A DNA stretch of 64,000 nucleotides from a bacterium (GTDB taxonomy: Bacteria > CAIWAD01): assembly GCA_030429345.1 (NCBI GenBank), contig JAUIFJ010000012.1, forward strand, positions 19,898 through 83,897, read 5' to 3'. Of the stretch, positions 3,111 through 61,024 are shown piece after piece; the stretch's first letter is position 1; the number at the start of each line of letters is the position of its first letter. The notes beneath the pieces were generated by a model. It worked only from the letters and a program-made list of their open reading frames with translations. It did no database searches and was not told where the DNA came from. Made by a program: the position numbers and the translations under genes.

Positions 3111-3123
3111 AAAGGACAAGATC

Positions 3124-39728: not shown

Positions 39729-41813
39729 ATGAAGACATGGATTCCGCTGCTCTGCGCCCTGGCTGGCCTGCTGCAGGCCCAGGACAGCCATCTGACCCTG
39801 GCCGGCGCCTGGGAGAAGGGCGCCTGCCAGGCGGCCAGCGCCCGCAACGACAGCCTGCTCTATGCGGGCAACGGGCACTTCATCGAGCTGGTGGATGTGC
39901 GCGACTGGTCGGTGCTGCAGCGTTTCTCAACGCCCTCTTTCATCCAGAGCCTGCTCTTCGAGGATGGCCGGCTGCTGTTGTGGCAGGAGGACAGCCTGAT
40001 CACCTACGACGCCGCCTTGCCCGGAAGCCTGGATCGCCTTGCGGCATGGCCCGAGCCCTGTTCCAACAGTGGACTCGCCGACCTGGAGGGCAGCCTGTTC
40101 AGTGCGATCCACGAAGACACGCTGCGAGTGTGGGACATGTCGGATCCAGGCGCTCCCGACCTGCTCAGCACGACCCTGCTGCAGCAAGCCAGTACGCGGA
40201 TCCTTGGCCAGGACAGCCTGCTCTGCGTACTCCACGACAACAGCCTGGATCTGTGGAGCCTGGCGGATCCGGCTTCGCCCGCCCTGCTGGGGGAAGTGCC
40301 GGGGCTGGCCACCTATCCCGCCATTGCCCGGGACGGCGATCGTCTGCTGGTCGAGAGCGAGGACAGCCTGAAGATCTATGACCTGGCCGACCCGGAGAAT
40401 CCGCAGCTCGAAGGCGCTTTCGAGCTTCCTGGATTTGTGATACACAGCTGCCTGTCGGGAAACCGGGCCGCCGTGTCGACTCCCTACACGCAATACCTGT
40501 ACAGCCTGATCGATCCGACCGCTCCCGGCCTTGTGGACAGCCTGGACCAGCCGAGTGGCGGACTGCTGCATTTCGTCGGGAACCGCCTGTGTCTGGTCTA
40601 CCAGACGAAACAGCAGAGTTGGCGCACCAGCCTGCAGGACGGGCTGGTCGAGCCGGCGACACGCTGGATGGGAGGCAATGCCGCCGGGCTGCATCTGGCC
40701 GGTGACCGGGCATTCGCCGGCTTCAACCAGGCCGGCTTCGCGATTCTCAGCCTGATCGCGCCCGGCGAGCTGAGCGAGCTCTTCGAGCGCCAGGACCCGG
40801 AAACCGGCGTCCGCGCGCTCGACGGATGGAGCACGCGCCTCGTCACCATTGACGGCAATGCCCGGTTCCGACTCCTGGACGCAAGCGGGCCCGGAGTGCC
40901 CGTGGAGCTCGGCGCCATGGATCTGCCGGCAGTCCCCGAGCTCTTCGTGGACGGGATCAACGCCTGGTGCATGGATGACGACAGCCTGCGCATGATCCGG
41001 CTGCTCGGGCCCTTCGCGCCGAGCCAGGCCGTCGTACTGCCTCACGGCTTGAGTGGCAGTTTTCAATATCCGACCAGCCTCTTCGGCGATTCGGGCAGGC
41101 TGATCCTGACCAGCTCGGGCTTTCCGGACGAATTGCTGAGCCTCTACGATACGAGCGATCCCGCCAACCCGCAATTCCTCGGGGACTGGATCGTGCCCAA
41201 TGAGGTGGGCCACCTCTTCAGGGGCGACCTGGAAGGATCGATGGGCGTGCTGCTGGGCACTTCCGGCATCCTGCTCTTCGAGTGGGACGAAGGCGCGCCC
41301 CAGACCCGCGCGCTGATCGATGTGAGCGTCGGCGACCTGCCCGACTGCGCCCGCCTCGACGGGGAGCGGTTGTGGCTGGGCAGCTACAGCGGCCTGCGCC
41401 TCTACTCCATCGCCGATCCGGAAGAGCCGATCCTGGCCGGCTACTGGCCCACCCCCGGGTCCCTGGTCAACCTAGAGGTGCAGGCGGACCGCGTCGTCGG
41501 GCTCGGCCCGACGGGATTGTATCACTGGGGCCGCATCGACACGGATCTCGACCTGGCTATTGCGCCCGTGCTCTCTCCGCAGGCGACGATCGAACTGAGC
41601 TGGAATCCGCTCTCCTTCGCCAGCGGCTACGCCATCTACAGCCGGTCGCCGCTGGAGGGCGCCTGGATCGCCCGGGCGCTTGTGATACAGGACCACTGGA
41701 TGGAGACTCCCTTCGGCAGCGCGCCGGCGAAGCGCGAATACCGGGTGGTTCCTCTCGCTCAGGCCCCGAACGAAATGCAACACACGAACTCCCGAACCAG
41801 GAGTGCCCGATGA
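39729..41813 (+). CDS. secreted LVIVD-repeat beta-propeller protein with a C-terminal FN3-like module
   Basis: A signal peptide MKTWIPLLCALAGLLQA is present. Repeated L-x-[IV]-x-D-[LIV]-[SA]-DP-x-x-P motifs are visible (LRVWDMSDPGAP, LKIYDLADPENP...). Confidence 0.6.
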   Translation: MKTWIPLLCALAGLLQAQDSHLTLAGAWEKGACQAASARNDSLLYAGNGHFIELVDVRDWSVLQRFSTPSFIQSLLFEDGRLLLWQEDSLITYDAALPGSLDRLAAWPEPCSNSGLADLEGSLFSAIHEDTLRVWDMSDPGAPDLLSTTLLQQASTRILGQDSLLCVLHDNSLDLWSLADPASPALLGEVPGLATYPAIARDGDRLLVESEDSLKIYDLADPENPQLEGAFELPGFVIHSCLSGNRAAVSTPYTQYLYSLIDPTAPGLVDSLDQPSGGLLHFVGNRLCLVYQTKQQSWRTSLQDGLVEPATRWMGGNAAGLHLAGDRAFAGFNQAGFAILSLIAPGELSELFERQDPETGVRALDGWSTRLVTIDGNARFRLLDASGPGVPVELGAMDLPAVPELFVDGINAWCMDDDSLRMIRLLGPFAPSQAVVLPHGLSGSFQYPTSLFGDSGRLILTSSGFPDELLSLYDTSDPANPQFLGDWIVPNEVGHLFRGDLEGSMGVLLGTSGILLFEWDEGAPQTRALIDVSVGDLPDCARLDGERLWLGSYSGLRLYSIADPEEPILAGYWPTPGSLVNLEVQADRVVGLGPTGLYHWGRIDTDLDLAIAPVLSPQATIELSWNPLSFASGYAIYSRSPLEGAWIARALVIQDHWMETPFGSAPAKREYRVVPLAQAPNEMQHTNSRTRSAR

Positions 41814-43837
41814 TCACGAAATGGATGCTTCTGCTGCTGGCCTCGGCGGCCCTGGCACAGGACACGCAACTGACCGGCGCGGGCGCCTGGGAGCACGGGG
41901 ACTGCCACAGCTTCGAATTCCGCGACGACAGCCTGGCCTACATGGGCAACGGCCACATGATCGACCTGGTCAACACGGCCAGCGGCCTGGTCCTGGAACG
42001 CTTCCGCACTCCCGAAGAGGTGGGCGCCCTGCGCTACGAGGACGGCCTGCTGCTGAGCTGGGGCCACGACAGCCTGCGCTTCTGGGACGCCACCCTGCCG
42101 GGCACGCTGGACTGGCTCGCCTCCTGGGAGGATCCAACCTCGACCAGCGCGCACACGGCGCAGGAGGGACGTCTCTTCTGCATGAGTCGCGAGGATTCGC
42201 TCTATGTGCTCGACATTGCCGACCCGGCCCTGCCGGTTCCATTCTGGCGGGGCGAGCTGCAGGAAGGCAGCTACTGGATCGACCTGGAGGACAGCCTGCT
42301 CAGCGTGCAGCGCACGGACGCGGCCCTGGACCTGATCGACCTCTCCGACCCTTTCAATCCCGCGTTTCAGAGCACGATCACGGGACTGCACGAATACCTG
42401 CCGCAGCCGGCCCGTCGCGGCCAGTACCTGCTGGCGCTGATGGACAGCCTGCGGCTCTACTCGCTGGCCGACCCGGCCTCTCCCCTGCCCCTGAGCGCCC
42501 TGCCGCTTCCCGACTCGCTGGCCATCGATGGCCTGGACATGGGGGGCGGCAAGGCGGCCTGCACCGATTTCGACGGCTTCCTGGTCTTTGACCTGTCGAA
42601 TCCGCTGGATCCGCAGCTCAGCCATTTCCAGGAAGTCTACGCCGGTTTCGAGCTGCCGCGCCTGCGGGCGGACCGCCTGGTCGTCGCCGGGCGCAACAAG
42701 TGCCGGATGCTCGACCTGGATTCGGCCGGCCTGCCGCTGGACGAGCGGCTAGTATACACCGGCTCCAGCGCTCCGCAGGGTCTGCACACGGTCGGTTCGC
42801 ATGCCCTGCTGGGCCTCAACATCGCCGGCATGGTCACGGTCGACCTGAATGCCCCGGGCGGGCCCCAGGAAGTGGGCGACCGCGGCAGCTGGCCCGTCGT
42901 GCGCGCCCTGGACGGGCAGGGAAACTGGCTCGCCATCGCCAGCGACGGGGACGGCCTGCAGATCCTCGACGCCAGCGATCCGCTGAATCTGCAGACCGTC
43001 TGGACCGCTCCCTCCTCCCCCTTCGACGACTTCCGGGTCGACAATGGACTGCTCTTCGGCTGGAACACGGATTCGCTCTTCGTGCTCGATCCCTCGCCGC
43101 CGAACTCCCCCGTGCTGCGGGATGCCCTGCCCCACTCAGGCTACTACATCTCGGACATCGCTTTGGGCGACGGCGTACTCATTGCCAGCTACGTCTTCGA
43201 CGACGAGGTCGAGTTCTTCGACATCAGCGATCCGGAGGCGGTCACCTCGCTGGGCCCCTGGACGCCGGCAGGCCTGGATGGACCGCGCGGGGGCGACATA
43301 GATGGCGGGCACGGGGTTCTGGCAAGCTATGACAGCCTCCTGCTGTTCAGCCTGGCGAGCGGCCAGCCCGAGCTGCGCAGCGCCCTTCCTGCAGAGGAGT
43401 TCGTCTTCCTGGAGGCCGTCTGGGACGGCGAGCGCCTCTTCGCAGCCTCCAGCGCCGGCCTGCACGTATACGCCGTGCCACGGTTGACGACTCCCATCGA
43501 GCTCGCCTTCTTCCCGACGCCGGAAGGCCTGCGGCAGCTGCACGTGGAAGAGGACCGCGTCCTGGCCCTGGGCACCACGGGGCTCTTCAGCTGGAGCCGC
43601 GCGGACACGGACCTGGACCTGCGCATCACGCCGGTCCTCGACGGGGCGGACACCATCGAGCTGAGCTGGAACCTGCAGTCCTTCGCCGCCGGCTATGCCG
43701 TCTACAGCCGCCTGCCCTACACGGGCCCCTGGGTCGAAGTGGCCCAGGTGACACAGGACCGCTGGACGGAAGCGCCCTTCGGCCCGACGCCGACGCTGCG
43801 CGAATACCGCGTCCTGCCGCTCGGCGAGCTGGACTGA
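41810..43837 (+). CDS. secreted LVIVD-repeat beta-propeller protein, paralog
   Basis: An AGGAG RBS is present and the ATG overlaps the upstream stop (ATGA). The protein is colinear with the upstream paralog and has the same C-terminal module. Confidence 0.6.
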   Translation: MITKWMLLLLASAALAQDTQLTGAGAWEHGDCHSFEFRDDSLAYMGNGHMIDLVNTASGLVLERFRTPEEVGALRYEDGLLLSWGHDSLRFWDATLPGTLDWLASWEDPTSTSAHTAQEGRLFCMSREDSLYVLDIADPALPVPFWRGELQEGSYWIDLEDSLLSVQRTDAALDLIDLSDPFNPAFQSTITGLHEYLPQPARRGQYLLALMDSLRLYSLADPASPLPLSALPLPDSLAIDGLDMGGGKAACTDFDGFLVFDLSNPLDPQLSHFQEVYAGFELPRLRADRLVVAGRNKCRMLDLDSAGLPLDERLVYTGSSAPQGLHTVGSHALLGLNIAGMVTVDLNAPGGPQEVGDRGSWPVVRALDGQGNWLAIASDGDGLQILDASDPLNLQTVWTAPSSPFDDFRVDNGLLFGWNTDSLFVLDPSPPNSPVLRDALPHSGYYISDIALGDGVLIASYVFDDEVEFFDISDPEAVTSLGPWTPAGLDGPRGGDIDGGHGVLASYDSLLLFSLASGQPELRSALPAEEFVFLEAVWDGERLFAASSAGLHVYAVPRLTTPIELAFFPTPEGLRQLHVEEDRVLALGTTGLFSWSRADTDLDLRITPVLDGADTIELSWNLQSFAAGYAVYSRLPYTGPWVEVAQVTQDRWTEAPFGPTPTLREYRVLPLGELD

Positions 43838-43932: not shown

Positions 43933-46290
43933 TCAGGGCGCCGTGCGGCAGGGACGGAAGCCGATCCCGGAAAATGCGCCGCTCGATCCCGGCAGGTTGT
44001 GATTGCGCTTGGCGCAGTTCACGTACAAAGCGCTGCTGTTAAAGCCACCACCACGATGCACACGGTGTGAGCCGGCCATCGCCCCGTGTGGATTGATTTC
44101 CGGCCCTGCAGGATAATCGTCATAGCGATCCCCGGTCCACTCGGAAACATTCCCCGCCATGTCGAACATGCCCAGGGAGTTCGCCCCGGCGGCATAGCTT
44201 CCACCCGGAGTCTTCCAGCCGACGAAATTGCCGGCATTGACCAGCGTCGCACTCGGGTAGGTGCTGCCCCAGGGGTAGGGCCTGCCGTCGGCCAGGCGCG
44301 CGGCGTACTCCCATTCGGCCTCCGTCGGCAGTCGATAGCCTTCGGCCGTGTAGGGATCGTGTCCGGCTTCCTGGTCCCAGTTGCCGTTGTAGTACGGAGC
44401 AAGCCCCTCCATGAGGCTTCGCAGGTCGCAGTAGACGGCGGCGCCGTACCAGGTGACCCTGGATGTCGGCAGGAACCAGGGATCGTAGCCCTCCGGATAG
44501 GCCGCCGAAGCTCCCGGGTGCGTCGAAGGGGTCACGCTGAAAAGGCCGTCCGCGAAAAGGATTTCCGAATCGTCGTAGTTCAGCCGGCAGAGACACTCTT
44601 CCCAGGCCCAGGCGCAACTGCCATACACCTCCACCATTCCATTGTCGACGCCCCACTGAAGTACCTCGAGGAACTCGGCATGTGTCACTTCCCGCGTGCC
44701 AAGCAGGAAGTCCTGCTGCAACGTCACTTCATGTTCGGGGGTTTCGATGCCGTCCAGTCCCATGGTGAAGGTGCCGGCCGGCACCAGGGTCATCTCGCCA
44801 GGCCAGGTCGGCGCTGTCGTGGTCGAGAAGCGCCAGACGGGGCCTGCCGTCTCGTAGCCTTCCGGATCGCGGGACACGATCTGCCAGTAGTAGATCGTGC
44901 TGTCGGCCAACGCGCCGGGATCGATGCTGAAGGCCGCCAGATCCACGGCGAGCGGGGCCCCGTCCATCGGCGAAGGATCCGTGCCGAAGTAGACATCGAA
45001 GACCAGCGGATCCTCATCCGTATCCGTGCCGCTCCAGGAAAGCAGGGAAACCTCTGCCACGCCGTACTCGTGCATGGCGGGAGAAGGGGCAGCAGGTGCG
45101 TCCGGCGCGTGATTGGCCGATATCCCATTGGTACGGCAGACGCGGAAGCCGATATAGCGGTTCGTCGTCACATGGCCCTGGCCAGACTTGCGCACCAGGC
45201 GCAGGGACCAGGCGCTGGCGGAAAAGCTGCCGCCTCGTGTCACGCCAACGCCGATCGACTGCGGTCCCAGGGGATCCACCAGGTCCCCGCTTTGAAGACC
45301 ATTGATATCTCCCGTCCACTCGGCCATGCTGCCGGCCATGTCCAGCAGACCGAGCGAACTCGCGCCTTCGGGGAGGCTGCCCACGGGAAGGGTCCAGCCA
45401 ACGCAGCCCGCGCTGTTGTTGTAGTTGACACGATCGCAGCTGACGGCTTCATCCCCCCAGGGATACTGCCGCATGTCGTCGAAGCGGGCGGCTCGTTCCC
45501 ATTCGGCGTCCGTGGGCAGACGGTAGCCGGGATGCTCATAGGGCGAATGCTCAGGAGTCTGGTTCCACTCCCCTTCATAGTAGGGGGGAATGCCGCTGCG
45601 AATGCTAAGCCAGTCGCAATAGCAGGCAGCGCCGAAGAAGCTGACTTCGCGCACCGGGTGATTGCCCGGATCGTAGCCAAGCGGATAGGCCTGGAAGGAG
45701 CTGGAATAGGAAGTCGGTGCCAACCGGAACTGCCCATCCTCGAAGAAGATCTCGCCCGTGTCCTCCAGGTCCAGGAGCAACATGCCGTAGGCATGAACTC
45801 CTCCGTCTTCTACTGTCACACGCCCCGTGTCATAGGCCCACTGCAGCTGTTCCATGTACTGGCGATTGGTGACCTCGAAGGTGCCCAGGAAATAGTCCTT
45901 CGACAAGGTGACCTGCTGCTCCGGGTAGCCCGCCAGATCATCGCCCTTGGTGAAAGTGCCCGCCGGCACCAGGGTCATGTCCGGCTCGTGAGGCAGGCCA
46001 ACGCTGTCGGCGACCACGCGGAAGAAACGGCGCTGAATGATTTCCCCGTAGCCGTCGCGCTCCGGGATCCAATGGCTGGTCTTTGCCGTCGTGAACAGCA
46101 GGCTCTCCTGCTGGAACAGTGTATCTCGAAGGACGACGGAATAGCGGTTGGCGCCGGCAACGGCGTCCCATTCCAGGGTGAAGCCATCTACACCATGCAG
46201 GGGCAAGGTCTGAATCGTCAATTGGGGTGTTTCAATTGCCTGGGCAATCGACACACAAAAGGATACAGCGATCAGGATCGAGGGGCGCAT
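43933..46290 (-). CDS. secreted double FGE-sulfatase (SUMF1)-fold domain protein
   Basis: The ORF was trimmed to the signal peptide MRPSILIAVSFCVSIAQA, which has a GGAGA RBS. Two FGE-like domains are present (MTLVPAGTFTxG ... YRLPTxAEWExAAR ... GNVSEWT). Confidence 0.75.
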   Translation of the reverse strand: MRPSILIAVSFCVSIAQAIETPQLTIQTLPLHGVDGFTLEWDAVAGANRYSVVLRDTLFQQESLLFTTAKTSHWIPERDGYGEIIQRRFFRVVADSVGLPHEPDMTLVPAGTFTKGDDLAGYPEQQVTLSKDYFLGTFEVTNRQYMEQLQWAYDTGRVTVEDGGVHAYGMLLLDLEDTGEIFFEDGQFRLAPTSYSSSFQAYPLGYDPGNHPVREVSFFGAACYCDWLSIRSGIPPYYEGEWNQTPEHSPYEHPGYRLPTDAEWERAARFDDMRQYPWGDEAVSCDRVNYNNSAGCVGWTLPVGSLPEGASSLGLLDMAGSMAEWTGDINGLQSGDLVDPLGPQSIGVGVTRGGSFSASAWSLRLVRKSGQGHVTTNRYIGFRVCRTNGISANHAPDAPAAPSPAMHEYGVAEVSLLSWSGTDTDEDPLVFDVYFGTDPSPMDGAPLAVDLAAFSIDPGALADSTIYYWQIVSRDPEGYETAGPVWRFSTTTAPTWPGEMTLVPAGTFTMGLDGIETPEHEVTLQQDFLLGTREVTHAEFLEVLQWGVDNGMVEVYGSCAWAWEECLCRLNYDDSEILFADGLFSVTPSTHPGASAAYPEGYDPWFLPTSRVTWYGAAVYCDLRSLMEGLAPYYNGNWDQEAGHDPYTAEGYRLPTEAEWEYAARLADGRPYPWGSTYPSATLVNAGNFVGWKTPGGSYAAGANSLGMFDMAGNVSEWTGDRYDDYPAGPEINPHGAMAGSHRVHRGGGFNSSALYVNCAKRNHNLPGSSGAFSGIGFRPCRTAP

Positions 46291-46348
46291 ATGGGTCTCC
46301 GGTGAATTCTTTCGTCCGAGATTTCTCTGTTTGCGTATGCATGCAGCC

Positions 46349-48700
46349 TCAAGGCGCGGTCCGGCAGAGACGGAAGCCTGTAATGGAAGTTGCATGATTC
46401 CATGTAGGCAATGCGCGCAGCCGCTTCGCCGTATGCAAGAGGTCTGCGGATCCCGCGAAGCCGCCTCCGCGCAGGACCCGCCGCGTGCCGCTGCCAGGAC
46501 CATAGGGATTGGAAACCGCAGCGGCTGAGTAGTCTCCGTGGCGATCGCCGGTCCATTCGGACACGTTTCCCGCCAGGTCCTGGATCCCCAATCCGCTGCT
46601 GCCTGCAGGATAGGATCCGGGCAAGACCGTCCAGCCGACGAAGTTCCCGGCATTGACGAGGGTCGCGTTGGGATAGGTCGCTCCCCAGGGATAGTCGCGC
46701 CCGTCACTGTAGCGAGCGGCATACTCCCATTCGGCCTCCGTGGGCAGGCGATAGCCCGCGGCCGTGTAGGGGTCGTGGGCAGCATTCTGATCCCAGTTCC
46801 CGTTGTAGTACGGAGGCAGTCCCTCCATCATGCTGCGAAAGTCGCAATAGGCGGCGGCTCCATACCAGGTGATGTGTGCGGCAGGAAGAAACCAGGGATC
46901 ATAGCCCAGCGGGTATGCGGCGTTGGCGGCTTCGTCGGGGGCGACACTGAAGTGTCCGTCCGCGAAGGTGATCTGGCTCCACTCCGTACCGAGCCGGCAC
47001 AGGTCCTGTCCCCAGGCCATGGCCGCGTCGTCCACCAGCTCCACATGGCCGTTGTCAAGCCCCCACTGCAAAGCGGTGAGAAACTCGGCGTGTGTTACTT
47101 CCTGCCTGCCGAGCAGGTAGTCCTGCTGCAAGGTCACAGTGTGCTCCGGCGTGGCAACCCCATTCTTTCCCATCATAAAGGTTCCCGCCGGCACCAGGGT
47201 CATTTCGCCCAGCCAGGATGGTGGCGTCGAGGTCGAAAAGCGCCACACCGGCCCAGGGGTCTCCAGCCCCTCCGGATCACGGGCGAGCACACGCCAGTAG
47301 TAGGCCGTACTGTCCGCCAGCATGCCCGGCGAATAGCTGGTTGCAGCCAGATCCGTGATGATCGGCGCCGCATCCAGTTGCGCCGGATCCGTATTCAGGT
47401 AGACATCGAAGACCAGCGGATCCTCGTCCAGGTCCGCGCAACTCCATGCCAGAGCGGCACCGTTGGCAACGCCATACTCCTGCCGCATGGGAGAGGGATC
47501 TGCCGGTTTCTCCGGGGCGTGATTCGTCGACACTCCATCCGTACGACAAATGCGGAAGCCGTGGTGCCTGGCGGCGACGCTTGGCCCGATCGTTCCCTTG
47601 CGCATCATGCGCAGATTCCAGACGGACTCCTCGAAACTGCCGCCCCGGCTGGTCATCGGACCAGAAACCTGTGACCCAAGGGGATCCACGGCGTTCGCGC
47701 TCTCGATGCTGTAGCGATCGCCCGTGAATTCTCGGATGTTCCCGGCCATATCGAGTACACCCAGTTCGCTTGCTCCAGCAGGCAAGCTGCCGACGGGCAA
47801 GGTCCAGCCCTCGCAGTTGCTGCCATCATGGTTGGCCAGGCTGCAGGTGGGGGCAGCCTCGCCCCATGGATAGTTCCGCAAGTCATTGGACCGGGCGCTG
47901 TATTCCCATTCCGCGTCCGTAGGCAATCGGTAGCCGGCACTCTCGTAGGGATTGTGATCCGGGCGCTGGCTCCAGTCGCCATTGTAGTACGGCGGCAAGC
48001 CGTTGCGCATGCTGAGCCAATCGCAGTAACAGGCAGCGCCGAAGAAGGTCACATCCTTCACTGGATGCTCGCCCGGGTCATAGCCATCCGGATAAGCGCT
48101 TGCCCCCAGGGCACTGGTTGTCGGCTCCAGGTAGAAGAGCCCGTCGTTGAAGCGGATCTCGCCGTCTTCTTCCAGATCCAGCAGGTTCAGGTCGTAGGCC
48201 TTGACCTGAGTGTTCTCGACGCTGACCAGCCCGTTGTCATAGGCCCACTGCAGCTGTTCCATGTACTGCCGGTTGCTGACTTCCAGGGTGCCCAGGTGGA
48301 AGGCCTTGCTCAGGGTGACCGTGTGTTCCGGATAGCCGGCCACATCGTCCCCCATGGTGAAGGTCCCCGCAGGCACCAGGGTCATGGCCGGTTCGTGTGG
48401 CAAGGCCACGCTGTCGGCGACCACGCGGAAGAAGCGGCGTGAGACAAGTACTCCTGTGCCGTCGCGCTCCGGAAGCCAGTGGGCAGTCTTTGCCGTCGTG
48501 AACAGCAGGCTCTCCTGCTGGAACAGTGTATCACGTAGCAGTACGGAATAGCGGTTGGCGCCGGCGACGGCGTCCCATTCCAGGGAAAATCCGGACTGGC
48601 CCTGAAAGGTGGATCTGTGGATCGACACCTGGGGTTCATCCAGGGCCTGCACGGTGGACAGGCCGACGAAAAGGAAACTGATCAGTAGGTGCGATTTCAT
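46349..48700 (-). CDS. secreted double FGE-sulfatase (SUMF1)-fold domain protein, paralog
   Basis: A signal peptide MKSHLLISFLFVGLSTVQA and an AGGAGA RBS are present. The protein is roughly 60-70% identical to the upstream paralog over its full length. Confidence 0.75.
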   Translation of the reverse strand: MKSHLLISFLFVGLSTVQALDEPQVSIHRSTFQGQSGFSLEWDAVAGANRYSVLLRDTLFQQESLLFTTAKTAHWLPERDGTGVLVSRRFFRVVADSVALPHEPAMTLVPAGTFTMGDDVAGYPEHTVTLSKAFHLGTLEVSNRQYMEQLQWAYDNGLVSVENTQVKAYDLNLLDLEEDGEIRFNDGLFYLEPTTSALGASAYPDGYDPGEHPVKDVTFFGAACYCDWLSMRNGLPPYYNGDWSQRPDHNPYESAGYRLPTDAEWEYSARSNDLRNYPWGEAAPTCSLANHDGSNCEGWTLPVGSLPAGASELGVLDMAGNIREFTGDRYSIESANAVDPLGSQVSGPMTSRGGSFEESVWNLRMMRKGTIGPSVAARHHGFRICRTDGVSTNHAPEKPADPSPMRQEYGVANGAALAWSCADLDEDPLVFDVYLNTDPAQLDAAPIITDLAATSYSPGMLADSTAYYWRVLARDPEGLETPGPVWRFSTSTPPSWLGEMTLVPAGTFMMGKNGVATPEHTVTLQQDYLLGRQEVTHAEFLTALQWGLDNGHVELVDDAAMAWGQDLCRLGTEWSQITFADGHFSVAPDEAANAAYPLGYDPWFLPAAHITWYGAAAYCDFRSMMEGLPPYYNGNWDQNAAHDPYTAAGYRLPTEAEWEYAARYSDGRDYPWGATYPNATLVNAGNFVGWTVLPGSYPAGSSGLGIQDLAGNVSEWTGDRHGDYSAAAVSNPYGPGSGTRRVLRGGGFAGSADLLHTAKRLRALPTWNHATSITGFRLCRTAP

Positions 48701-48947
48701 GAGGTTCTCCTGCGCTGTGTCCCTTTTTGCAAAGGTTGCTGTGTTCTTGAGGATGAGGAAGAGCAGACAGAACCGCAAGGACTGATCCGGACAACCGAAA
48801 ACAGCGTCGCGATCGATCGCCGGCTCACCCGGCTACGCCTTCACTGGATTTCCGGTATTGGTCGAAGGCGATGCGTGGTCGATTTTCCCTGTAGGCGAAT
48901 TGACATGCCTCATGGCGAATCCGGATCCCTTTCGTCTGCTTGACCGG

Positions 48948-49910
48948 ATGAAACTCTTTCCCTTGATGCTCTTGAGCCTCTGCTTCCTCCACCTGGCGGG
49001 CTGCGAGGACGATTCTCCTGCACCTCCAGACCTCGGCGAATGGGTCTTCGTTCCCGCCGGAAGCTTCCGCATGGGGGAAACGGGAACTGCCCGCGCCGAG
49101 CCGGAGCATGAGGTCACCCTGACCCGGCACTACTATCTGAGTCGCTACGAGACCACCAACCTGCAATTCGCCTCCATGCTTCAGTGGGCCTGGGAGAACG
49201 GACGCGTGCTCGCCGACAGCTCGGAAGTGCGCTATCCCTACGGGCAGCATCTGATCCAGCTGATGGACCTCTCGAATCCGGCCTGCGAGATCGCTTTCGA
49301 CAGTACGGGTTTCCGGGTACGGGCGTCACGGGATCCAAGGGCACTGGCTGCCTATCCCCAGGGCTACGAGGCGGAGCTGCATCCGGTCAAGCTGCTCTCC
49401 TGGCGGGCCGCGGCGCTCTACTGCGACTGGCGCAGCATCCGCAACGGCCTGGCCCCGTACTACAATGATGAATGGGAACAGGGCGCTGGCCATGATCCCT
49501 ACCTGGCGGAGGGCTTCCGCCTGCCGACGGAAGCCGAATGGGAACACGCCGCGCGCTACCCGGACTCCCGGGTCTTTCCCTGGGGCAACCAGCCCCTGAC
49601 GCCGCAGCGCGCGGCGTTCCGGCAGTCCTGGTCCAGTCCCGTCGGTTCGAGGCCTTCCGGGGAAAGCGCGCTGGGCCTGGCCGACATGGCGGGCAATGTC
49701 TGGGAATGGACCGACGACGGCTACGGCGAGTATCCCTCTGCCGCAGAGCGCCAGAACCCCCTGGGCCGCTCCGGCGGCTGGCCGCACACCATACGGGGCG
49801 GCTACTGGGACAACGGCGAATCCCTGTTGCGCACGACGGCGCGCACGAGCTTCGGAGTCGACTACCCGCATGCGGGCATCGGCTTCCGCGTCTGCCGGCT
49901 GCTTCCCTGA
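48948..49910 (+). CDS. FGE-sulfatase-fold lipoprotein (single domain)
   Basis: A lipoprotein signal MKLFPLMLLSLCFLHLAGC is present, together with the FGE blocks FRLPTEAEWEHAAR and GNVWEWT. The start is uncertain. An alternative TTG/ATG lies upstream. Confidence 0.65.
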   Translation: MKLFPLMLLSLCFLHLAGCEDDSPAPPDLGEWVFVPAGSFRMGETGTARAEPEHEVTLTRHYYLSRYETTNLQFASMLQWAWENGRVLADSSEVRYPYGQHLIQLMDLSNPACEIAFDSTGFRVRASRDPRALAAYPQGYEAELHPVKLLSWRAAALYCDWRSIRNGLAPYYNDEWEQGAGHDPYLAEGFRLPTEAEWEHAARYPDSRVFPWGNQPLTPQRAAFRQSWSSPVGSRPSGESALGLADMAGNVWEWTDDGYGEYPSAAERQNPLGRSGGWPHTIRGGYWDNGESLLRTTARTSFGVDYPHAGIGFRVCRLLP

Positions 49911-49947
49911 AGGCAAGAGCGCGTTTCGAAGAAGAGGAGTTCCCGGC

Positions 49948-50919
49948 ATGAAACACAAGGCACGCAGGGTTCTACAGTGGTTCCCTTTCCTGAGTGTCGC
50001 ACTGCTTCTCGCGTGTGATGGAATCCACGACGCGCCCGCCCCCCTGGCCGGGGACCTGGAGATGATCCCGGTGCCGGAGGGCAGCTTCGTGATGGGCAGG
50101 GAGGCATGGCCCGAGGCGGAACCGGAGCATGGGGTCACCCTGAGCCGTTCCTTCGAGCTGAGCCGATTCGAGATCACCAATGCCCAGTACATCGACATGC
50201 TGAACTGGGCCTGGGAGCAGGGCCGGCTGGCGGTCCATGCGGGCAGTGTCTACCTTCTGCCGGGCTACGCGCATCCGCTGTACCTGCTGAATGCCGACGG
50301 CAGCGAGATCTTCTTCATTGGATCACGCTTCCTGCCGCGTCGTCACGACCTGGTTGTCCTGCCGGAGGACTATGACCCGGACCCGCACCCCGTCAAGTGC
50401 GTGACCTGGTACGGCGCGGCCTTCTACTGCGACTATTTGAGCCTGCTGGAAGGGCTGCAGCCCGTCTACAGTCCCAGGCGGTTCCTGCTGGATGACCTCT
50501 CCCCCTACGAGCAAGAAGGCTACCGCCTGCCGACGGAAGCCGAATGGGAACGGGCCGCCCGCTTCGACGACGGCCGGCTCTACCCCTGGGGAAACCAGGG
50601 GGCTTCCCAAGAACGGGTCGTATACGGCAACGCCTGGTCCGAAGCCGTCGGCTCCAGGCCGCTGGGCCGCAGCCGGCTGGGGCTCGAGGATCTATCCGGC
50701 AATGTCTGGGAATGGGTGCACGATCGCTACGGCATGTATACGGCGGAGTCCCGCACGGACCCCTTCGACAACGGCGGGGAGGACCGTCGGGCCATGCGCG
50801 GCGGCTATTGGGCAACGCCGCCTCTTCTGCTGAGCACGGTCACGCGGAGCTTCGGGGACCCGGACAAGGGACACAAGGCGAACGGCTTCCGGGTCTGTCG
50901 TACAGCGCCGGAGCAGTAG
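49948..50919 (+). CDS. FGE-sulfatase-fold lipoprotein (single domain), paralog
   Basis: A lipoprotein signal MKHKARRVLQWFPFLSVALLLAC is present, together with the blocks YRLPTEAEWERAAR and GNVWEWV. Confidence 0.7.
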   Translation: MKHKARRVLQWFPFLSVALLLACDGIHDAPAPLAGDLEMIPVPEGSFVMGREAWPEAEPEHGVTLSRSFELSRFEITNAQYIDMLNWAWEQGRLAVHAGSVYLLPGYAHPLYLLNADGSEIFFIGSRFLPRRHDLVVLPEDYDPDPHPVKCVTWYGAAFYCDYLSLLEGLQPVYSPRRFLLDDLSPYEQEGYRLPTEAEWERAARFDDGRLYPWGNQGASQERVVYGNAWSEAVGSRPLGRSRLGLEDLSGNVWEWVHDRYGMYTAESRTDPFDNGGEDRRAMRGGYWATPPLLLSTVTRSFGDPDKGHKANGFRVCRTAPEQ

Positions 50920-52555: not shown

Positions 52556-54796
52556 ATGAACACAAGACGAATGGGCCTGCTGCAGGCAGGAGCCCTGGCG
52601 ACCCTGGTCGCCCTGCTGGGCTGTACGGACGAAGAGAACGATCCCGCCGGCGAAAGCGGCTGGAGCGGCACATTCAGCGCCATGATCAACGGCGTCGCCG
52701 TCTCTTTCAACGAAGGCATCTGGATGGAAGAGATCAACGGAGGCGACGCCTGGGTGATCGCCAACTCAGGAGACCGGCAGCTGCAGTTCTACGTGCCGAA
52801 CAAGGCTGTCGGCATTTTCCTGACCGACGGCGGCGCCATGGGCCGCTATGTCCCAGACACTTCCGACCCGGACTACGACTACGCCAATCCGACGGACGCC
52901 TACGAGAGCCGCCCCGGCATCATCGGCGGCAGCATCACCCTGACCGAGGCGGGAGCGAACAGCCTGGGCGGCAGTTTCGCCTTCGACCTGCTCAACGCGG
53001 CCGGAACGGATACGGTCCGTGTGACAAACGGCAGCTTCGCCATGGAATACGGCGTCTCGGCGAATCCGACGACACCGGTCGGTGCGAGCTGGCAGGCCAA
53101 CGAAACCGGCGTGCTGGAGCACAGCTTTCACCTGGCCGACGACGGCAGCATGGAAAGCGTGCTCGCGCTCTTCGAGCTGGAAAGCTGCATTTCCTTCGAC
53201 GGCAGCTATTCCATCACCGGAGACAGCCTGCACCTGGTCGAGGACGGTGTCACAAGCTCCTTCGCCTGGAGCCTGAGCGGGGAGGTGCTGCTGCTGCGGG
53301 ACGCCACCAATCCGGCCGGCTTCAGCTACCAGCGGATCACGGCCCTGCCGGAGTGCTCGGACTACGGCTTCGGCGCGGCCAGCGATTGGCAGGGAACCCT
53401 GATGGCCCGCATCGACGGGCAGGAGGTCTCCTTCACGGACCGGATCCGCGTCGAGACGATCTTCGGCGACGACCTGTGGGTGATCGCCGACGCGGGAGAT
53501 ACGCAGCTGCAGTTCTACCTGGAAAGCGCCGAGGTCCGCACGCACAACACCGGTGACGACGCCATGGGACGCTATGTGCCCGACACCAGCCTGCCCGGCT
53601 ACGACTATGCCAACCCGGCCGGGGCCTTCGAGAGCATTCCCGGCGTGATCGGGGGCGGCATCGTGATCAGCGAGCTCAGCGAGTCCCGCATCGTCGGCAG
53701 TTTCGCCTTCGACCTGGCCAACGCCGGGCAGACCGAGTTCACCAGCGTGACACATGGCCAGATCGACATCCACCTGGGCGAACCTGCCCTGGATCCCGCG
53801 GGAGTCTGGCAGCGCACGGAAGGCGGCCTGATCGAGGAAAGCTGGGAGTTCCTTTCCGAAGGCAGCTATACGCGTGTTACAGCCTACCTGGACCAGGAAT
53901 ACTGCGAGAGCGAGAACGGCAGCTGGAGCCTGGACGGCGACCTGCTGAGCCTGATGCCCCTGAGCGGCGGCACGCGGGTCTACACCCTGGCCCGCTCCTC
54001 ATCCCTGTTGAGCCTGTCGGCCGGCGGGGAAACGATGCTCTTCAATGAGATCCTCAGCCTGCCCGACTGCGAGCACTACGGCTTTGATCCCTTCGCCGCC
54101 TTCTACGGTTCCTGGCAACATGGCGTCGCCGGCGACTTCGAGGAGACCTACACCTTCCGCGAGGACGGCCGGGTCGACATCCTCGTGGCCCTCTTCCAGG
54201 ACGACTATTGCTTCGTCGTCGAGGGCCTGTGGACGGCGACCCTGGCCGAGATCACCATCGAGTACCTCTTCAACAACGGGCCGCCGCTCTTCGCCTGGAG
54301 CCGCAGCGGGAACACCCTGACCCTCGACAGCCCGCTCTATTCGCCCTTCGTGCTCGAGCGTGTCGAGACCGCCCCCACCTGCGACGACTACGACTTCGTC
54401 TCCGGCACCCCCCAGGGCACCTGGCAGCAGGGAGTGCCCGGGACCTGGGAGTTCTCCGTGGAGTACGCGGCCGACTTCGGCTACAGCCAGACCTATGCCA
54501 TTTTCACCGACGCCAACTGCTTCGAGGAAGCCGGCAGCTGGAATGCCGACAGCGACTCCGTCTACACCAACGTGGACGGCAATCTCAACGCCCTGGCCTA
54601 CGAACGCCAGGGCACCCTGCTGACGCTGACCTATTCCGACGGCAACCGCACCAACCAGTTCACCATCGATCCCGCGGACATGCCCGCCTGTTCCGACTAC
54701 GGCCTGGGCGGCGCGGCGGCGGGAGGCAGTTCGCCGCACGCGCTTCGCGGCGGATCGGGCCTCTTCCGGGTGGAAGGCCCGCGGCCCCTGGACTAG
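52556..54796 (+). CDS. repeat-containing lipoprotein (hypothetical)
   Basis: A lipobox MNTRRMGLLQAGALATLVALLGC is present. There are four to five internal repeats of about 150 aa, each carrying a [LP]-P-x-C-x-[DH]-Y-[GD]-[FL] motif. Confidence 0.5.
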   Translation: MNTRRMGLLQAGALATLVALLGCTDEENDPAGESGWSGTFSAMINGVAVSFNEGIWMEEINGGDAWVIANSGDRQLQFYVPNKAVGIFLTDGGAMGRYVPDTSDPDYDYANPTDAYESRPGIIGGSITLTEAGANSLGGSFAFDLLNAAGTDTVRVTNGSFAMEYGVSANPTTPVGASWQANETGVLEHSFHLADDGSMESVLALFELESCISFDGSYSITGDSLHLVEDGVTSSFAWSLSGEVLLLRDATNPAGFSYQRITALPECSDYGFGAASDWQGTLMARIDGQEVSFTDRIRVETIFGDDLWVIADAGDTQLQFYLESAEVRTHNTGDDAMGRYVPDTSLPGYDYANPAGAFESIPGVIGGGIVISELSESRIVGSFAFDLANAGQTEFTSVTHGQIDIHLGEPALDPAGVWQRTEGGLIEESWEFLSEGSYTRVTAYLDQEYCESENGSWSLDGDLLSLMPLSGGTRVYTLARSSSLLSLSAGGETMLFNEILSLPDCEHYGFDPFAAFYGSWQHGVAGDFEETYTFREDGRVDILVALFQDDYCFVVEGLWTATLAEITIEYLFNNGPPLFAWSRSGNTLTLDSPLYSPFVLERVETAPTCDDYDFVSGTPQGTWQQGVPGTWEFSVEYAADFGYSQTYAIFTDANCFEEAGSWNADSDSVYTNVDGNLNALAYERQGTLLTLTYSDGNRTNQFTIDPADMPACSDYGLGGAAAGGSSPHALRGGSGLFRVEGPRPLD

Positions 54797-54959: not shown

Positions 54960-55778
54960 CTAGCGCACCAGCAGCATCTTTCGTGTCGCCTTCAGCTCGC
55001 CCGCCTCCAGGCGCAGCAGGTAGGCGCCGCTGGGCAGGGAACCGGCCTCGAAGTGCAGACTGTGCTTGCCCCGGCTCAAGACCTCCTCGACCAGCGTGCG
55101 CACAAGCGCACCGGTCAGGTCATGCACCGCCAGGCGCGCGAAGGAGGTTTCGGGCAAGGTGAACTCCAGGCGCGTCGCCGGATTGAAGGGGTTGGGGTAA
55201 TTCTGCTGAAGCGCGAAACCGCCCGGCTGCTCCGCCGCCGAAGCCGTGTCTCCCCCTTCCGGTCCGAGCACGAAACAGAGCTCGAAAGGCGCGTCCTCGC
55301 AGCGCTGGACGCAGCTCTGCGGATCGAAGGAGCTGTAGACCTTCACCTGGAGGATGTAGTCCCCGGCCTCCAGGCACTCGTCTCCCCAGGCCGTGCCGAT
55401 GGCCGCGGGCGTATAGCTGATGCAGGCCAGCTCGTCGACGCAGTTGTAGTCGTCGTTGCGGGCGACCCGGTCATCGTCGTGATACAGCCAGAAGGCCGTG
55501 TCCGCCGACAGGTCGCCGCAGGAGGAGATCGACCAGTCGCAGAGGGTCTCGTCCAGGCTGAAGGTCAGGTAGGTGCAGGTGCTGCCGCTGCAGCCGCCCC
55601 ACTGGGTCGCCTCCACGGTGAAGGTATCACAGAAGACCCCGGCGCCGATGTCCAGCTCGATCGCGTCCCAGGTGCGGGAGTCGGGGTTGAAGGGATCCGG
55701 CCGGTCCGACTTGTCCGCGCGCACACTGCCCGCCGCAAGCAGCAGCGCCAGGGGGGCAATCCAGAATTCTTTTTGCAT
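54960..55778 (-). CDS. Cys-rich secreted protein with a T9SS C-terminal domain
   Basis: A signal peptide MQKEFWIAPLALLLAAGSVRA is present. The C-terminus reads NYPNPFNPATRLEFTL...GAYLLRL...KMLLVR. Confidence 0.6.
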   Translation of the reverse strand: MQKEFWIAPLALLLAAGSVRADKSDRPDPFNPDSRTWDAIELDIGAGVFCDTFTVEATQWGGCSGSTCTYLTFSLDETLCDWSISSCGDLSADTAFWLYHDDDRVARNDDYNCVDELACISYTPAAIGTAWGDECLEAGDYILQVKVYSSFDPQSCVQRCEDAPFELCFVLGPEGGDTASAAEQPGGFALQQNYPNPFNPATRLEFTLPETSFARLAVHDLTGALVRTLVEEVLSRGKHSLHFEAGSLPSGAYLLRLEAGELKATRKMLLVR

Positions 55779-57350: not shown

Positions 57351-58601
57351 TCAGGTCGTATACTCGGAATTGATCTCCACGTAGCGGCGGCTCAGGTCGG
57401 TGGTCGCCATCCAGGCATTGCCCGGACCCTTCCCCAGGCGCAGGCGGATCTCCACCTGTTCTGCCGCGAAAGTCTGCGACAGGGACTTCGTGTCGACTGC
57501 CTGCGGGGCACCTCGGGTGTATACCGTGTGATCCCCCAGCTCCAGATGCAGCGAGTCCTCTTGCAGCGCGACGCCGGCATTGGCCGCCGCGGCCAGAATG
57601 CGCCCCCAGTTGGGATCGCCTCCGGCCAAAGCCGTCTTCACGAGGCTGGAGGTGGCAATCGCCAGCGCCACCTGCCGCGCTTCCGCATGGCTTTCCGCCC
57701 CTTCGACGGCGATCCGCGCCATGCGCGCGGCCCCTTCCCCGTCCCGGACGATCTGCAGGGCCAGCTCGCGGGCCACCCGCCGCAGCCCCCGGGCGAAGAG
57801 CGCCTCGCGCGCCCCTTCGGGCCGCAGGGCGGGCATGGCGGCTCCTCCGGCGAGGAGCAGCACGCTATCATTGGTGCTGGTGTCCCCGTCCACGGTGATA
57901 CAATGAAAGGAGCGGTCCACCGCCGCTCCCAGCAGCGCGTCCGCCCTCCCCTCCGCCAGCACGGCCTCGCTGCCGATGACGGCCAGCATGGTTCCCATGC
58001 GGGGGTGGATCATACCCGAGCCTTTGGCCGCGCCGCCGATGGTCACACGCCTGGCGGGATCGCCGTCTTCCTCCGGCAGCTCCAGTTCCAGGGCGCACTG
58101 CTTGGTGCAGGTATCCGTGGTCAGCATGGCCGCGGGCACCTCCCGCAGGGCCTCGGAACCCAGGCGGCCCTTCAACCGGTCGAGCCCCGCCTCGACCTTG
58201 CCGATCGGCAGGGGCACGCCGATCACGCCCGTGCTCAAGACGAGCGCCGGCCCGCCGAAATGTGCTTCGCTGCGTGTCCGCATGCGCTCGGCGTGTTCCA
58301 GCCCCTTCCTGCCGGTCAGCGCGTTGGCGTTTCCGCTGTTGATCACGACACAGGAGGCCCTGGCCGAGTCGGCGAGCATGCGGCGGCAGAGCTGCACCGG
58401 CGCGGCCGGCAAGCGGTTGAGCGTGAAGCGGCCGGCTGCCTGCAGCGGTTCTTCCGCCGCGATCACGGCCAGGTCCGGATTTCCGCTGTCCTTGAGTCCG
58501 ACCCCAAGCGCGCCTCCGCGCATCCCGGGCACCGAATGCAAGCCGCCCCCATCGAGAAAGCGGCCCTCGCCGGGCTCAGGCGCTGCAGGTGAGAGAGCCA
58601 C
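57351..58601 (-). CDS. argJ: bifunctional glutamate N-acetyltransferase / amino-acid acetyltransferase ArgJ
   Basis: ArgJ blocks are present, including the autoproteolytic ATML-like site (GTMLAV) and VINSGNANA. Confidence 0.85.
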   Translation of the reverse strand: MALSPAAPEPGEGRFLDGGGLHSVPGMRGGALGVGLKDSGNPDLAVIAAEEPLQAAGRFTLNRLPAAPVQLCRRMLADSARASCVVINSGNANALTGRKGLEHAERMRTRSEAHFGGPALVLSTGVIGVPLPIGKVEAGLDRLKGRLGSEALREVPAAMLTTDTCTKQCALELELPEEDGDPARRVTIGGAAKGSGMIHPRMGTMLAVIGSEAVLAEGRADALLGAAVDRSFHCITVDGDTSTNDSVLLLAGGAAMPALRPEGAREALFARGLRRVARELALQIVRDGEGAARMARIAVEGAESHAEARQVALAIATSSLVKTALAGGDPNWGRILAAAANAGVALQEDSLHLELGDHTVYTRGAPQAVDTKSLSQTFAAEQVEIRLRLGKGPGNAWMATTDLSRRYVEINSEYTT

Positions 58602-59064
58602 GCCTCTGCTCCTTTCCGCTGAAATGGACCCGTCGCCGCATCACATGGCGCCGGGCGCTGAGCGGCAGCTCCTTCCTGGCATCCTTTTCCGGAAGCCGGG
58701 AATCCTCCGCCCTTTCGAATCCCTGCAGCTGGAAGAAGGCCGGAGTCGTTGTCACACATAGCAATTCGCGTCCGCGCCTCTGCGCCTCGATACAGGCTGC
58801 GCGCACGACCCTTGCCCCCAGGCCATCCCCCTGCCACTCCGGATCAACGGCCACGCTGCGCAGCTCCAGATCCCCTTCCGGCAGGGATTCCAGGCTGGCG
58901 GCGGCTCGCGGACTGCCCGGCGGGCCAATGACGAACCAGTTTCCGATGCCGTCGGCAACCTCCTTCGCCGTGACCGGCAGGCAGCGTGGCACACAGCGTC
59001 CGACCAGGCGCGCAATGGCACCCGCCTCGGCCGGAAGCGCCTGACGGGGAATTCGCGGATTCAT
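58576..59064 (-). CDS. GNAT family N-acetyltransferase embedded in the arg operon
   Basis: The ORF was trimmed to MNPRIPRQ. A GNAT core is present (LRSVAVDPEWQGDGLGARVV). It overlaps both argJ and argD. Confidence 0.55.
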   Translation of the reverse strand: MNPRIPRQALPAEAGAIARLVGRCVPRCLPVTAKEVADGIGNWFVIGPPGSPRAAASLESLPEGDLELRSVAVDPEWQGDGLGARVVRAACIEAQRRGRELLCVTTTPAFFQLQGFERAEDSRLPEKDARKELPLSARRHVMRRRVHFSGKEQRRGSLTCSA

Positions 59065-60263: not shown

Positions 60264-61024
60264 ACCGCCGTTCCGCCGAAGGCGCGCATGGCCGCCAGGT
60301 CACCGATGCGCACGCGGCTCACGCCGGCGCGGATCGCTTCCGCGGCCGCGCGGATCTTGGGCCGCATGCCCCCGTGAATCACGCGCTTCTCGATCAGTCG
60401 CCGCGCCTCCGAAAGGCGCAGGAGCGGCAGCACCTCGCCCTGCTCGTCCTTGACTCCGGGGATGTCGGACACGAAGGCCAGTTCCTCGGCGGCCAGCGAG
60501 ACGGCCAGGGCGTGGGCGGCGTCGTCGGCATTGACATTGACCATGCCGCCGTCCTCCGCCAGCGCCACGGGCGCGATCACCGGCATGCGCCCGGCCTGCA
60601 GCTGCTCGCGGACCAGGTCCGGCCGCACGCATGGCGGCAGGCCCACGCGGCCCAGGCGATCCTCGTCCCGCAGCGCGGAGCGCAGCACTCCGCCATCCAC
60701 TCCCGAGAAGCCGACGGCAGGCAGGCCCTGCGCCAGGCAGGCCGCCGTGAGACGCTTGTTGACCAGGCCGCAGAGGGCCATCAGCACCACTTCCAGGTCC
60801 TTCTCCTCCGTCACACGCAGGCCCTCGACGCGCCGGGGCTCCATTCCCAGGACGCCCTGCAGCCGGTCGATGTCCGGCCCGCCGCCGTGTACGACAACGG
60901 CCCGGCGTCCCTTGCGGCGCAGCGCCTTGAGGTAGCCGCAGAAGGCCTTCAGGTCCTTGTCGGCGACCAGGTTCGCTCCGCCGACCTTGACCAGGGTCAC
61001 CGTGTCGGATGTGTGGTTCTTCAT
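60254..61024 (-). CDS. argB: acetylglutamate kinase ArgB
   Basis: The amino-acid-kinase fold is recognisable (LVKVGGA, VVVHGGGP, VNVNADDAA). Confidence 0.85.
   Translation of the reverse strand: MKNHTSDTVTLVKVGGANLVADKDLKAFCGYLKALRRKGRRAVVVHGGGPDIDRLQGVLGMEPRRVEGLRVTEEKDLEVVLMALCGLVNKRLTAACLAQGLPAVGFSGVDGGVLRSALRDEDRLGRVGLPPCVRPDLVREQLQAGRMPVIAPVALAEDGGMVNVNADDAAHALAVSLAAEELAFVSDIPGVKDEQGEVLPLLRLSEARRLIEKRVIHGGMRPKIRAAAEAIRAGVSRVRIGDLAAMRAFGGTAVCI

Follow-up and report, generated by a model that had tools for sequence, protein, structure and literature searches.

Four adjacent genes (A to D) in the 64-kb window, the whole stretch of bacterial DNA analysed here, encode six domains with the C-type-lectin-like fold of formylglycine-generating enzymes (FGEs), all of which lack the catalytic cysteine pair of these enzymes. 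We consider it probable (at about 0.6) that these domains are extracytoplasmic binding modules, secreted or surface-anchored, for a putative ligand. The cluster joins an already known, very large family.

The open reading frames, the export signals and the PF03781 matches agree with the initial annotation in delineating a four-gene cluster of two double-domain proteins and two lipoproteins (Table 1). Genes A and B share a strand, with B 58 bp upstream, B and C are divergent with a 247-bp spacer, and D starts 37 bp downstream of C. Proteins A and B, which carry ordinary signal peptides, are paralogues with 64% identity and the same layout (63% for A1/B1 and 67% for A2/B2 in the domain alignment that includes human FGE). 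Proteins C and D, which carry lipoboxes, contain one FGE-like domain each and share 46% identity. AlphaFold2 models A (pLDDT 87.5) as two FGE folds plus a pair of all-beta domains, of which the middle one backs the Ig/FN3-like linker previously proposed between the tandem FGE domains. Gene A has no T9SS C-terminal sorting domain. A sigma-54 promoter between the divergent genes B and C was considered and rejected, the pattern being rarer than chance in the window.

Table 1. Coordinates of the FGE-like genes, their domains and neighbouring genes in the window.
Feature	Position	Strand	Description	Basis
U1	39729-41813	+	694 aa, secreted; divergent LVIVD-type beta-propeller, FN3-like C-terminus	homologues
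U2	41810-43837	+	675 aa, U1 paralogue, 38.5% identity	blastp E 5e-109
Gene A	43933-46290	-	785 aa; Sec signal peptide, end ...SIAQA	
A, N-terminal beta-sandwich	mature residues 1-77			AlphaFold2
A, FGE-like domain 1 (A1)	45130-45999	-		
A, Ig/FN3-like middle domain	44815-45129	-	residues about 375-475	
A, FGE-like domain 2 (A2)	43936-44814	-		
Gene B	46349-48700	-	783 aa; signal peptide, end ...STVQA	
B, FGE-like domain 1 (B1)	47540-48406	-		
B, middle domain	47225-47539	-		
B, FGE-like domain 2 (B2)	46352-47224	-		
Gene C	48948-49910	+	320 aa; lipoprotein, lipobox LAG/C, then E-D-D-S	
Gene D	49948-50919	+	323 aa; lipoprotein, lipobox LLA/C	
Repetitive lipoprotein	52556-54796	+	746 aa; DUF6252, DUF5640, lipocalin-like repeats	Pfam

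The Pfam family PF03781 (FGE-sulfatase; the SUMF1/EgtB/PvdO superfamily, gathering cut-off 23.3 bits) matches two stretches in A (E 7e-74) and in B (E 1e-70) and a single one in C (E 3e-44) and in D (E 6e-43). The scores over the six domain stretches range from 148 to 249 bits, far beyond chance. The domains of A-D have the FGE-type C-type-lectin-like fold, and the AlphaFold2 model counted for fold and family has a pLDDT of 94.5. They share Pfam family and fold with human SUMF1 and with the FGEs of Streptomyces and Thermomonospora, and are 28-33% identical to human FGE. The structural disulfide equivalent to human C218/C365 (YC[DT]W ... GFRxC) is retained in all six domains. The D...GNxxEW segment, which corresponds to a Ca2+ site in human FGE, is conserved as well. 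The family blocks depart a little from the wording given in the initial annotation: A1 and B1 read PTDAEWE, A1 has GSMAEW, B1 has GNIREF and YSAR, and D has GNVWEWV.

Unlike FGEs, none of the six domains has a C-x4-C motif after RGG. In the alignment to human FGE (whose sequence was checked against HMMER fragments), the positions of Cys336 and Cys341 are occupied by gaps or by residues other than cysteine in 6/6 domains, and the phmmer alignment to PDB 2aft concurs. The HMM search and SUMF1 alignment suggested as a check on the missing active-site cysteines thus bear out their loss. The window domains further differ from human FGE by the deletion of the segment corresponding to residues about 259-275 and by the gain of a 26-residue GLxPYYNGxWDQ insert. 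The FGE-like genes also lack adjacent sulfatase genes, and the earlier statement that none occurs nearby holds for the GC3-supported candidate genes of at least 400 aa in the 64-kb window, among which no sulfatase (PF00884) was detected. Since the Cys336/Cys341 pair is absent, these data support the view that A-D consist of FGE-fold modules incapable of Cys-dependent formylglycine generation.

At E<=1e-30, the subfamily of the A-D domains comprises 1,138 clusters. The C-x4-C motif is found in 0 of 364 homologous segments, and loss of the cysteine pair is the norm within the subfamily. Members occur in metagenome genomes of Eisenbacteria, Delongbacteria and Calditrichaeota type. Fusions of the homologous domains are frequent, the partners being PKD, FN3, Laminin_G, C-type lectin, peptidase S8/C10 and lipase domains, and also to beta-helix, LVIVD and T9SS sorting modules, fusion positions that are typical for targeting or binding modules. 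At least two YRLPTEAEWE-type motifs occur in 63 of the 248 retrieved homologues, library proteins are seen with 2-18 matched stretches, and a target of a diversity-generating retroelement (DGR) with three tandem FGE-sulfatase domains has been published previously (PMC5758913). As arrays of 2-18 domains in tandem are frequently seen, the double-domain architecture of A and B is not unusual, contrary to what had been proposed. Paralogue clusters of FGE-like genes recur in other genomes and, the family being very large, the cluster described here is real but ordinary. The only feature common to four homologue neighbourhoods is the presence of further FGE-like paralogues; no conserved partner genes were found in these four, of which one has an LVIVD gene nearby and one a DUF6252 lipoprotein.

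The stretch following RGG is the most variable of the domain, with a mean entropy of 2.6 versus about 1.6 bits (Mann-Whitney p 2e-8) in a 50-sequence subfamily alignment in which possible DGR targets among the aligned homologues would inflate the values. Between A and B, the identity of this loop is modestly lower than the overall one (about 45-50% counted by eye, versus 63-67%). This stretch, from RGG to GFR, is also the place of the variable region in DGR targets. Among the closest known counterparts is TvpA (Treponema denticola variable protein 1, PDB 2y3c), presumably a lipoprotein like C and D, although its identity to the window domains is only 25%. It has an FGE motif but lacks FGE activity, and ligand binding is its presumed role; FGE-sulfatase domains ending in a variable region form the largest class of DGR targets (PMC5758913).

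A same-subfamily relative adjoins a DGR cassette in a Delongbacteria locus (L014), which includes a bAvd gene, a gene for a reverse transcriptase (RT) and a template copy, rich in Asn codons, of precisely the post-RGG stretch. The FGE-like paralogues of this locus share 38-46% identity with the window domains, and the 12 Asn positions of the template coincide with columns of 3.47 bits entropy, versus 1.74 bits at the other 22 positions. This cassette is only partly usable as clean proof of a DGR, since the mismatches between the template and two candidate variable regions are not adenine-specific (27/52 and 42/63 are non-adenine). Its RT gene is short (231 aa), and the element may be decayed or aimed at another gene.

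In the mechanism that we favour, C and D would be outer-membrane lipoproteins, and C might be surface-exposed because of the acidic E-D-D cluster that follows its lipidated cysteine; this motif resembles the lipoprotein export signal of Bacteroidota, which is defined only for that phylum (PMC5080379). Proteins A and B would be exported by Sec and carry two binding modules each on Ig/FN3-like spacers. The conserved core (YRLPTEAEWE, GNxxEW, RGG and GFRxC, together with the structural disulfide) would act as a scaffold for the RGG-GFR stretch of roughly 26 residues, the candidate ligand-contact surface, which differs among the six paralogous domains and occupies the site of both the copper-binding cysteine pair of FGEs and DGR hypermutation. 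Tandem duplication, with divergent B-A and C-D pairs, may have given rise to six fixed specificities, possibly directed at a glycan, a protein or a particle surface.

The neighbouring genes invite a more specific and speculative version of this scheme. The U1 homologues (database-wide E 5e-27 to 7e-6) include PF08309 (LVIVD) in 26/26 proteins from outside the contig of the window, PF09826 in most and T9SS sorting domains in many; the Pfam matches of U1 itself are subthreshold, and its functional link to the neighbouring A-D is only possible. The start of U2 overlaps the stop of U1 by 4 bp, and U2 is convergent with gene A. Its LVIVD score is 19.6 bits against a cut-off of 20.2, and it matches the LVIVD part of an LVIVD-FN3-FGE fusion protein (P0038). 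The N-terminal domain of A/B shows no significant homology to the C-terminal one of U1/U2 (E 0.05 or worse). On the other side of the cluster, the 746-aa lipoprotein is 40% identical over 708 aa to a DUF6252 lipoprotein encoded at positions 6052-8310 of the L014 locus; such a lipoprotein therefore adjoins FGE-like genes in a Delongbacteria genome too. At locus L015, a sigma-54 two-component pair adjoins an FGE-like gene. One could imagine, although we regard it as doubtful, that the window contains an island devoted to recognition at the cell surface, in an FCB bacterium akin to Delongbacteria/Eisenbacteria. It would unite the pair of LVIVD beta-propellers, the four proteins with their six FGE/C-type-lectin-fold modules and the repetitive DUF6252 lipoprotein, and its six fixed, germ-line binding specificities would take the place of the DGR hypermutation seen for this subfamily in relatives. 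Propellers and FGE modules would then cooperate, as the LVIVD-FN3-FGE fusion suggests.

Cysteine-less FGE folds are also found in PvdO, ToxD and CalU17, tailoring proteins of secondary metabolism, and PvdO is a periplasmic protein without the cysteine pair. Among PDB sequences, C matches ToxD best (E 6e-14), and a gene for a flavin amine oxidase is located 0.5 kb downstream of the A-D cluster on the opposite strand. A-D could thus be enzymes performing a chemistry other than formylglycine formation on an extracellular or periplasmic small molecule. We consider this unlikely: A-D score only 46-71 bits with the PvdO model (NF051459, cut-off 500) and 20-70 bits with those of EgtB, SenA and OvoA (cut-offs 360-420), whose match is limited to the C-terminal FGE-like part, and they lack the DinB-like iron-binding domain. 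Biosynthetic genes are absent from the cluster, and A-D are multi-domain secreted proteins or lipoproteins. Furthermore, within the domain, the would-be active-site region is conserved least of all, the opposite of what is predicted for a conserved catalytic site, and the position of FGE Trp299 varies among the six domains (S, A, R, W).

The initial annotation likened A-D to the gliding and T9SS lipoproteins GldK/PorK and GldJ. As structural parts of this machinery, they would be periplasmic lipoproteins of a ring or track. The fold of PorK/GldK (PDB 9mzu, 9ots) is also FGE-like, PorK likewise lacks the catalytic cysteines, and its fold has been repurposed for protein-protein contacts (PMC12421860). 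Like C and D, PorK/GldK are lipoproteins, both sets come from T9SS-bearing lineages, and the GldK model TIGR03525 is the best NCBIfam match for all four proteins. Their scores with this model nevertheless reach only 74-150 bits, against an equivalog cut-off of 350, and the matches are confined to model positions about 219-408, in the C-terminal half; those with the GldJ models (TIGR03524 and TIGR03530) are 15-39 bits, against cut-offs of 458 and 383 (23-39 bits where the cut-off is 458). In PorK, a large helical insertion of about 150 residues (InsH, R81-P230) builds the ring via PorK-PorK contacts (PMC12421860), and Cys343 of GldK forms a disulfide with PorG or SprF (PMC12635249). No equivalent of InsH is present in the domains of about 290 residues of A-D; in the model, the H-helix is followed only by a four-strand beta unit of some 45 residues. 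The location of porL/M/N (gldL/M/N) relative to the cluster had been proposed as a check, and none of these genes was found among those scanned in the 64-kb window.

Proteins A and B, moreover, are two-domain proteins and not lipoproteins, and in C the acidic motif after the cysteine indicates an outward-facing and not a periplasmic position. The family is also hugely expanded: 132,316 library clusters match, far above one machine component per genome. The organism does possess T9SS cargo, with Por_Secre_tail matches in five window proteins (three above and two just below the Pfam cut-off), so that the earlier emphasis on this system was justified in this respect. Many relatives of A-D themselves carry FlgD_ig or Por_Secre_tail sorting domains, which makes them cargo and not machinery. 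Altogether, a PorK-, GldK- or GldJ-like role of A-D appears improbable, and the proposed analogy is not borne out.

A DGR within the window was rejected, as it contains no RT or Avd (no tblastn match with the RT or Avd of L014, and no Pfam RVT match among the candidate genes scanned), no template/variable repeat pair, no extra copy of the six C-terminal (3') segments and no AAC-rich stretch (at most 5 AAC per 40 codons in any frame). That A-D are instead hypervariable receptors targeted by a DGR located outside the window is very improbable: DGRs can reach remote targets (PMC5758913), the window covers 64 kb of a 132.5-kb source contig and A-D belong to the subfamily of the genes flanking the L014 cassette, but these searches argue against it, as does the lack of a common template-like backbone in the six loops. 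In contrast to DGR variable proteins, the diversity of the A-D binding modules would thus be fixed in six paralogous domains and not generated.

These results bear on annotation, as homologues of A-D are named by pipelines 'formylglycine-generating enzyme required for sulfatase activity' or 'nonheme iron enzyme'. For the subfamily of A-D, it is almost certain that both names are mistaken, and its members should be counted neither as sulfatase maturases nor as T9SS core components in metagenome reconstructions of the FCB superphylum. Given the very large size of the subfamily and its fusions to many extracellular enzymes, the ligand of a single member would be informative for thousands of proteins, and the natural variation hotspot, which overlaps the DGR template, offers a concrete place to seek the binding site.

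The region 43933-50919 contains four genes arranged as two divergent pairs, which encode the two-domain secreted proteins A and B and the one-domain lipoproteins C and D. The six FGE-like domains recognised in these genes by the initial annotation were recovered by a profile search with Pfam PF03781 (FGE-sulfatase), with two matches in each of A and B and a single one in each of C and D (E-values 6e-43 to 7e-74). In an alignment of the six domains, the first domains of A and B (A1/B1) share 63% identity, the second ones (A2/B2) 67% and those of C and D 46%, with 38-47% for non-orthologous domain pairs, a pattern that points to an older domain duplication and a later tandem gene duplication.

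Coordinates of the FGE-like cluster, its surroundings in the window and the DGR-like cassette of a related locus
Feature	Position	Strand or orientation	Description
A	43933-46290	minus	785 aa; ordinary signal peptide, end ...SIAQA; 58 bp after B
B	46349-48700	minus	783 aa; ordinary signal peptide, end ...STVQA
C	48948-49910	plus	320 aa; lipobox LAG/C (cleavage at slash); 247-bp spacer from B
D	49948-50919	plus	323 aa; lipobox LLA/C; 37 bp after C
U1	39729-41813	upstream, convergent with A	secreted; LVIVD-type beta-propeller, FN3-like C-terminus
U2	41810-43837	upstream, convergent with A	U1 paralogue, 38.5% identity; stop/start overlap with U1
Repetitive lipoprotein	52556-54796		746 aa; DUF6252, DUF5640, Lipocalin_4 matches; repeats e.g. 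52823-52998, 53549-53724
Por_Secre_tail proteins (five)	22072-27363, 28918-30219, 30395-31981, 34275-36056, 54960-55778		
HydF and radical-SAM/BATS protein (HydG/HydE-like)	6653-9536		adjacent
Arginine-biosynthesis row	57351-62218	minus	ArgJ, acetylornithine aminotransferase-like, amino-acid kinase, semialdehyde dehydrogenase
Sigma-54 activator gene	62252-63697		after arginine-biosynthesis row
L014 DGR-like cassette	2837-4311 of locus		Candidatus Delongbacteria GCA_020634015.1, JACKCN010000002.1; bAvd, RVT_1 gene, template; four FGE-like genes around
L014 AAC-rich template	about 4168-4311 of locus		translation RGGNWNNSATNLRCANRNNNTPSNTNNNIGVRLC

The six domains were aligned with human FGE (28-33% identity), whose sequence was checked against PDB fragments. 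The positions of Cys336 and Cys341 correspond to gaps or non-Cys residues in all six domains, and both equivalents are likewise missing in a phmmer alignment of C with PDB 2aft. The counterpart of the human C218-C365 structural disulfide is kept in 6/6 domains, which fits a predicted oxidising extracytoplasmic location. The family motif blocks are present overall, as previously described, with small deviations in A1 (PTDAEWE, GSMAEW) and B1 (PTDAEWE, GNIREF), and the reported absence of nearby sulfatases was borne out among the GC3-supported candidate genes of at least 400 aa in the window. That A-D are PvdO/ToxD-like enzymes seems improbable.

With mature C as query, phmmer was run over 1.84 billion cluster representatives and yielded 132,316 matching clusters at E<=1e-3, of which 46,544 remained at E<=1e-10 and 1,138 at E<=1e-30. 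None of the 364 RGG...GFR segments from 248 retrieved homologues contains C-x4-C, and Cys loss is not unusual. The tandem architecture, formerly called unusual, is widespread: 63 of the 248 carry at least two YRLPTEAEWE-type motifs, and many matched proteins show 2-18 matched stretches (six in the metagenomic protein P0150, at 45% identity). The metagenomic giants P0150, P0151 and P0153 (1866-4448 aa) carry 6-18 stretches of the Cys-less domain, arrays far exceeding two-domain A and B in length. Named relatives come from MAGs of Candidatus Eisenbacteria, Delongbacteria and Calditrichaeota, and fused domains include PKD, FN3, Laminin_G_3, Lectin_C, peptidases S8 and C10, lipases, beta-helix and LVIVD. 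Each of four loci in other genomes (L001, L012, L014 and L015) shows 2-4 clustered FGE-like paralogues.

AlphaFold2 modelled mature C with high confidence (pLDDT 94.5, pTM 0.92), and Foldseek against the PDB matched all FGE-fold proteins about equally well (TM-scores 0.60-0.67). For mature A, the model (pLDDT 87.5) displays two FGE folds and two further all-beta domains, one N-terminal (residues 1-77) and one in the middle (about 375-475). The latter bears out the Ig/FN3-like linker already proposed, and is homologous to a repeat occurring in tandem in T9SS-cargo proteins, e.g., P0019 and P0035.

The initial annotation had likened these proteins to PorK, GldK and GldJ, an analogy that we do not retain. 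Scores with the NCBIfam GldK equivalog model reach 74-150 bits, where 350 would be required, the alignment being limited to the C-terminal half of the model, and the GldJ models give 15-39 bits (cut-offs 383 and 458). PorK is defined by two insertions in the FGE fold, InsH (~150 residues), which makes ring contacts, and InsV (PMC12421860), whereas the window domains total ~290 residues with only a small predicted four-strand unit at the InsH site. No porL/M/N was found among the genes scanned in the window. Moreover, the C-terminus of many relatives is a FlgD_ig or Por_Secre_tail sorting domain, which argues for a T9SS connection of the family as cargo rather than machinery. A role for A-D as PorK/GldK-like machinery is even less probable than an enzymatic one.

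The neighbours U1 and U2 are highly divergent and fall under Pfam cut-offs, their LVIVD family being visible only through database homologues: LVIVD occurs in 26/26 U1 homologues outside its own contig, most with Beta_propel and often with T9SS sorting domains. The two domain types are linked by the metagenomic protein P0038, in which an FGE-like domain is joined to LVIVD repeats and FN3. Downstream lie a DUF1499 gene, a flavin amine oxidase gene and the repetitive lipoprotein gene, whose product shares 40% identity over 708 aa with a lipoprotein of the Delongbacteria locus L014, also located amid FGE-like genes. No partner gene is common to all FGE-like neighbourhoods examined. In C, E-D-D immediately follows the lipidated Cys, as in an L014 lipoprotein, resembling the acidic export signal that leads to lipoprotein surface exposure in Bacteroidota (PMC5080379); the likeness is only suggestive, since this signal was studied in Bacteroidota alone.

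Elsewhere in the window, three Por_Secre_tail matches lie above and two just below the Pfam cut-off, in a set including 1763-aa Big_9/cadherin-like, DUF4397 and GlcNAc 2-epimerase-like proteins. The source organism clearly exports T9SS cargo; no T9SS core gene is present in the window. The HydF and radical-SAM/BATS pair suggests [FeFe]-hydrogenase maturation and an anaerobic or fermentative lifestyle. In the neighbourhood of one homologue, L015 (5596-12688), genes for a HisKA sensor kinase and a response regulator of the sigma-54 type directly precede a Laminin_G_3-FGE-like gene, but the FGE-like cluster of the window showed no sigma-54 promoter motif.

Variability within the domain peaks in the RGG-GFR stretch, site of the catalytic loop in FGE (mean entropy 2.6 bits versus about 1.6 in a 50-sequence subfamily alignment). 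At L014, whose FGE-like genes share 38-46% identity with all six window domains, exactly this stretch is present as an AAC-rich non-coding copy, alongside bAvd and RVT_1 genes, the hallmarks of a DGR template. Its 12 Asn positions have a mean subfamily column entropy of 3.47 bits, the remaining 22 positions 1.74. This link is supported by published data: the largest DGR target class corresponds to FGE-sulfatase domains with C-terminal variable regions, and TvpA, inactive as an FGE, is presumed to be a ligand-binding protein (PMC5758913). The L014 element may be decayed, given the many non-adenine mismatches between the template and each of the two candidate variable regions close by (1898-2041 and 5708-5849) and the short RVT_1 (RT) gene (231 aa), or it may really act on a target at some other site. 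The window itself contains no DGR, and A-D being targets of a remote one is very improbable.

The best-supported reading, to which we give a probability of roughly 60%, is that A-D are tandemly duplicated putative extracytoplasmic binding proteins on an FGE/C-type-lectin scaffold, the RGG-GFR loop likely forming their putative specificity-determining surface. A-D add members to a kind of protein already known, and the main value of the finding is a correction of annotation, because they are not sulfatase maturases and do not belong to the T9SS core.
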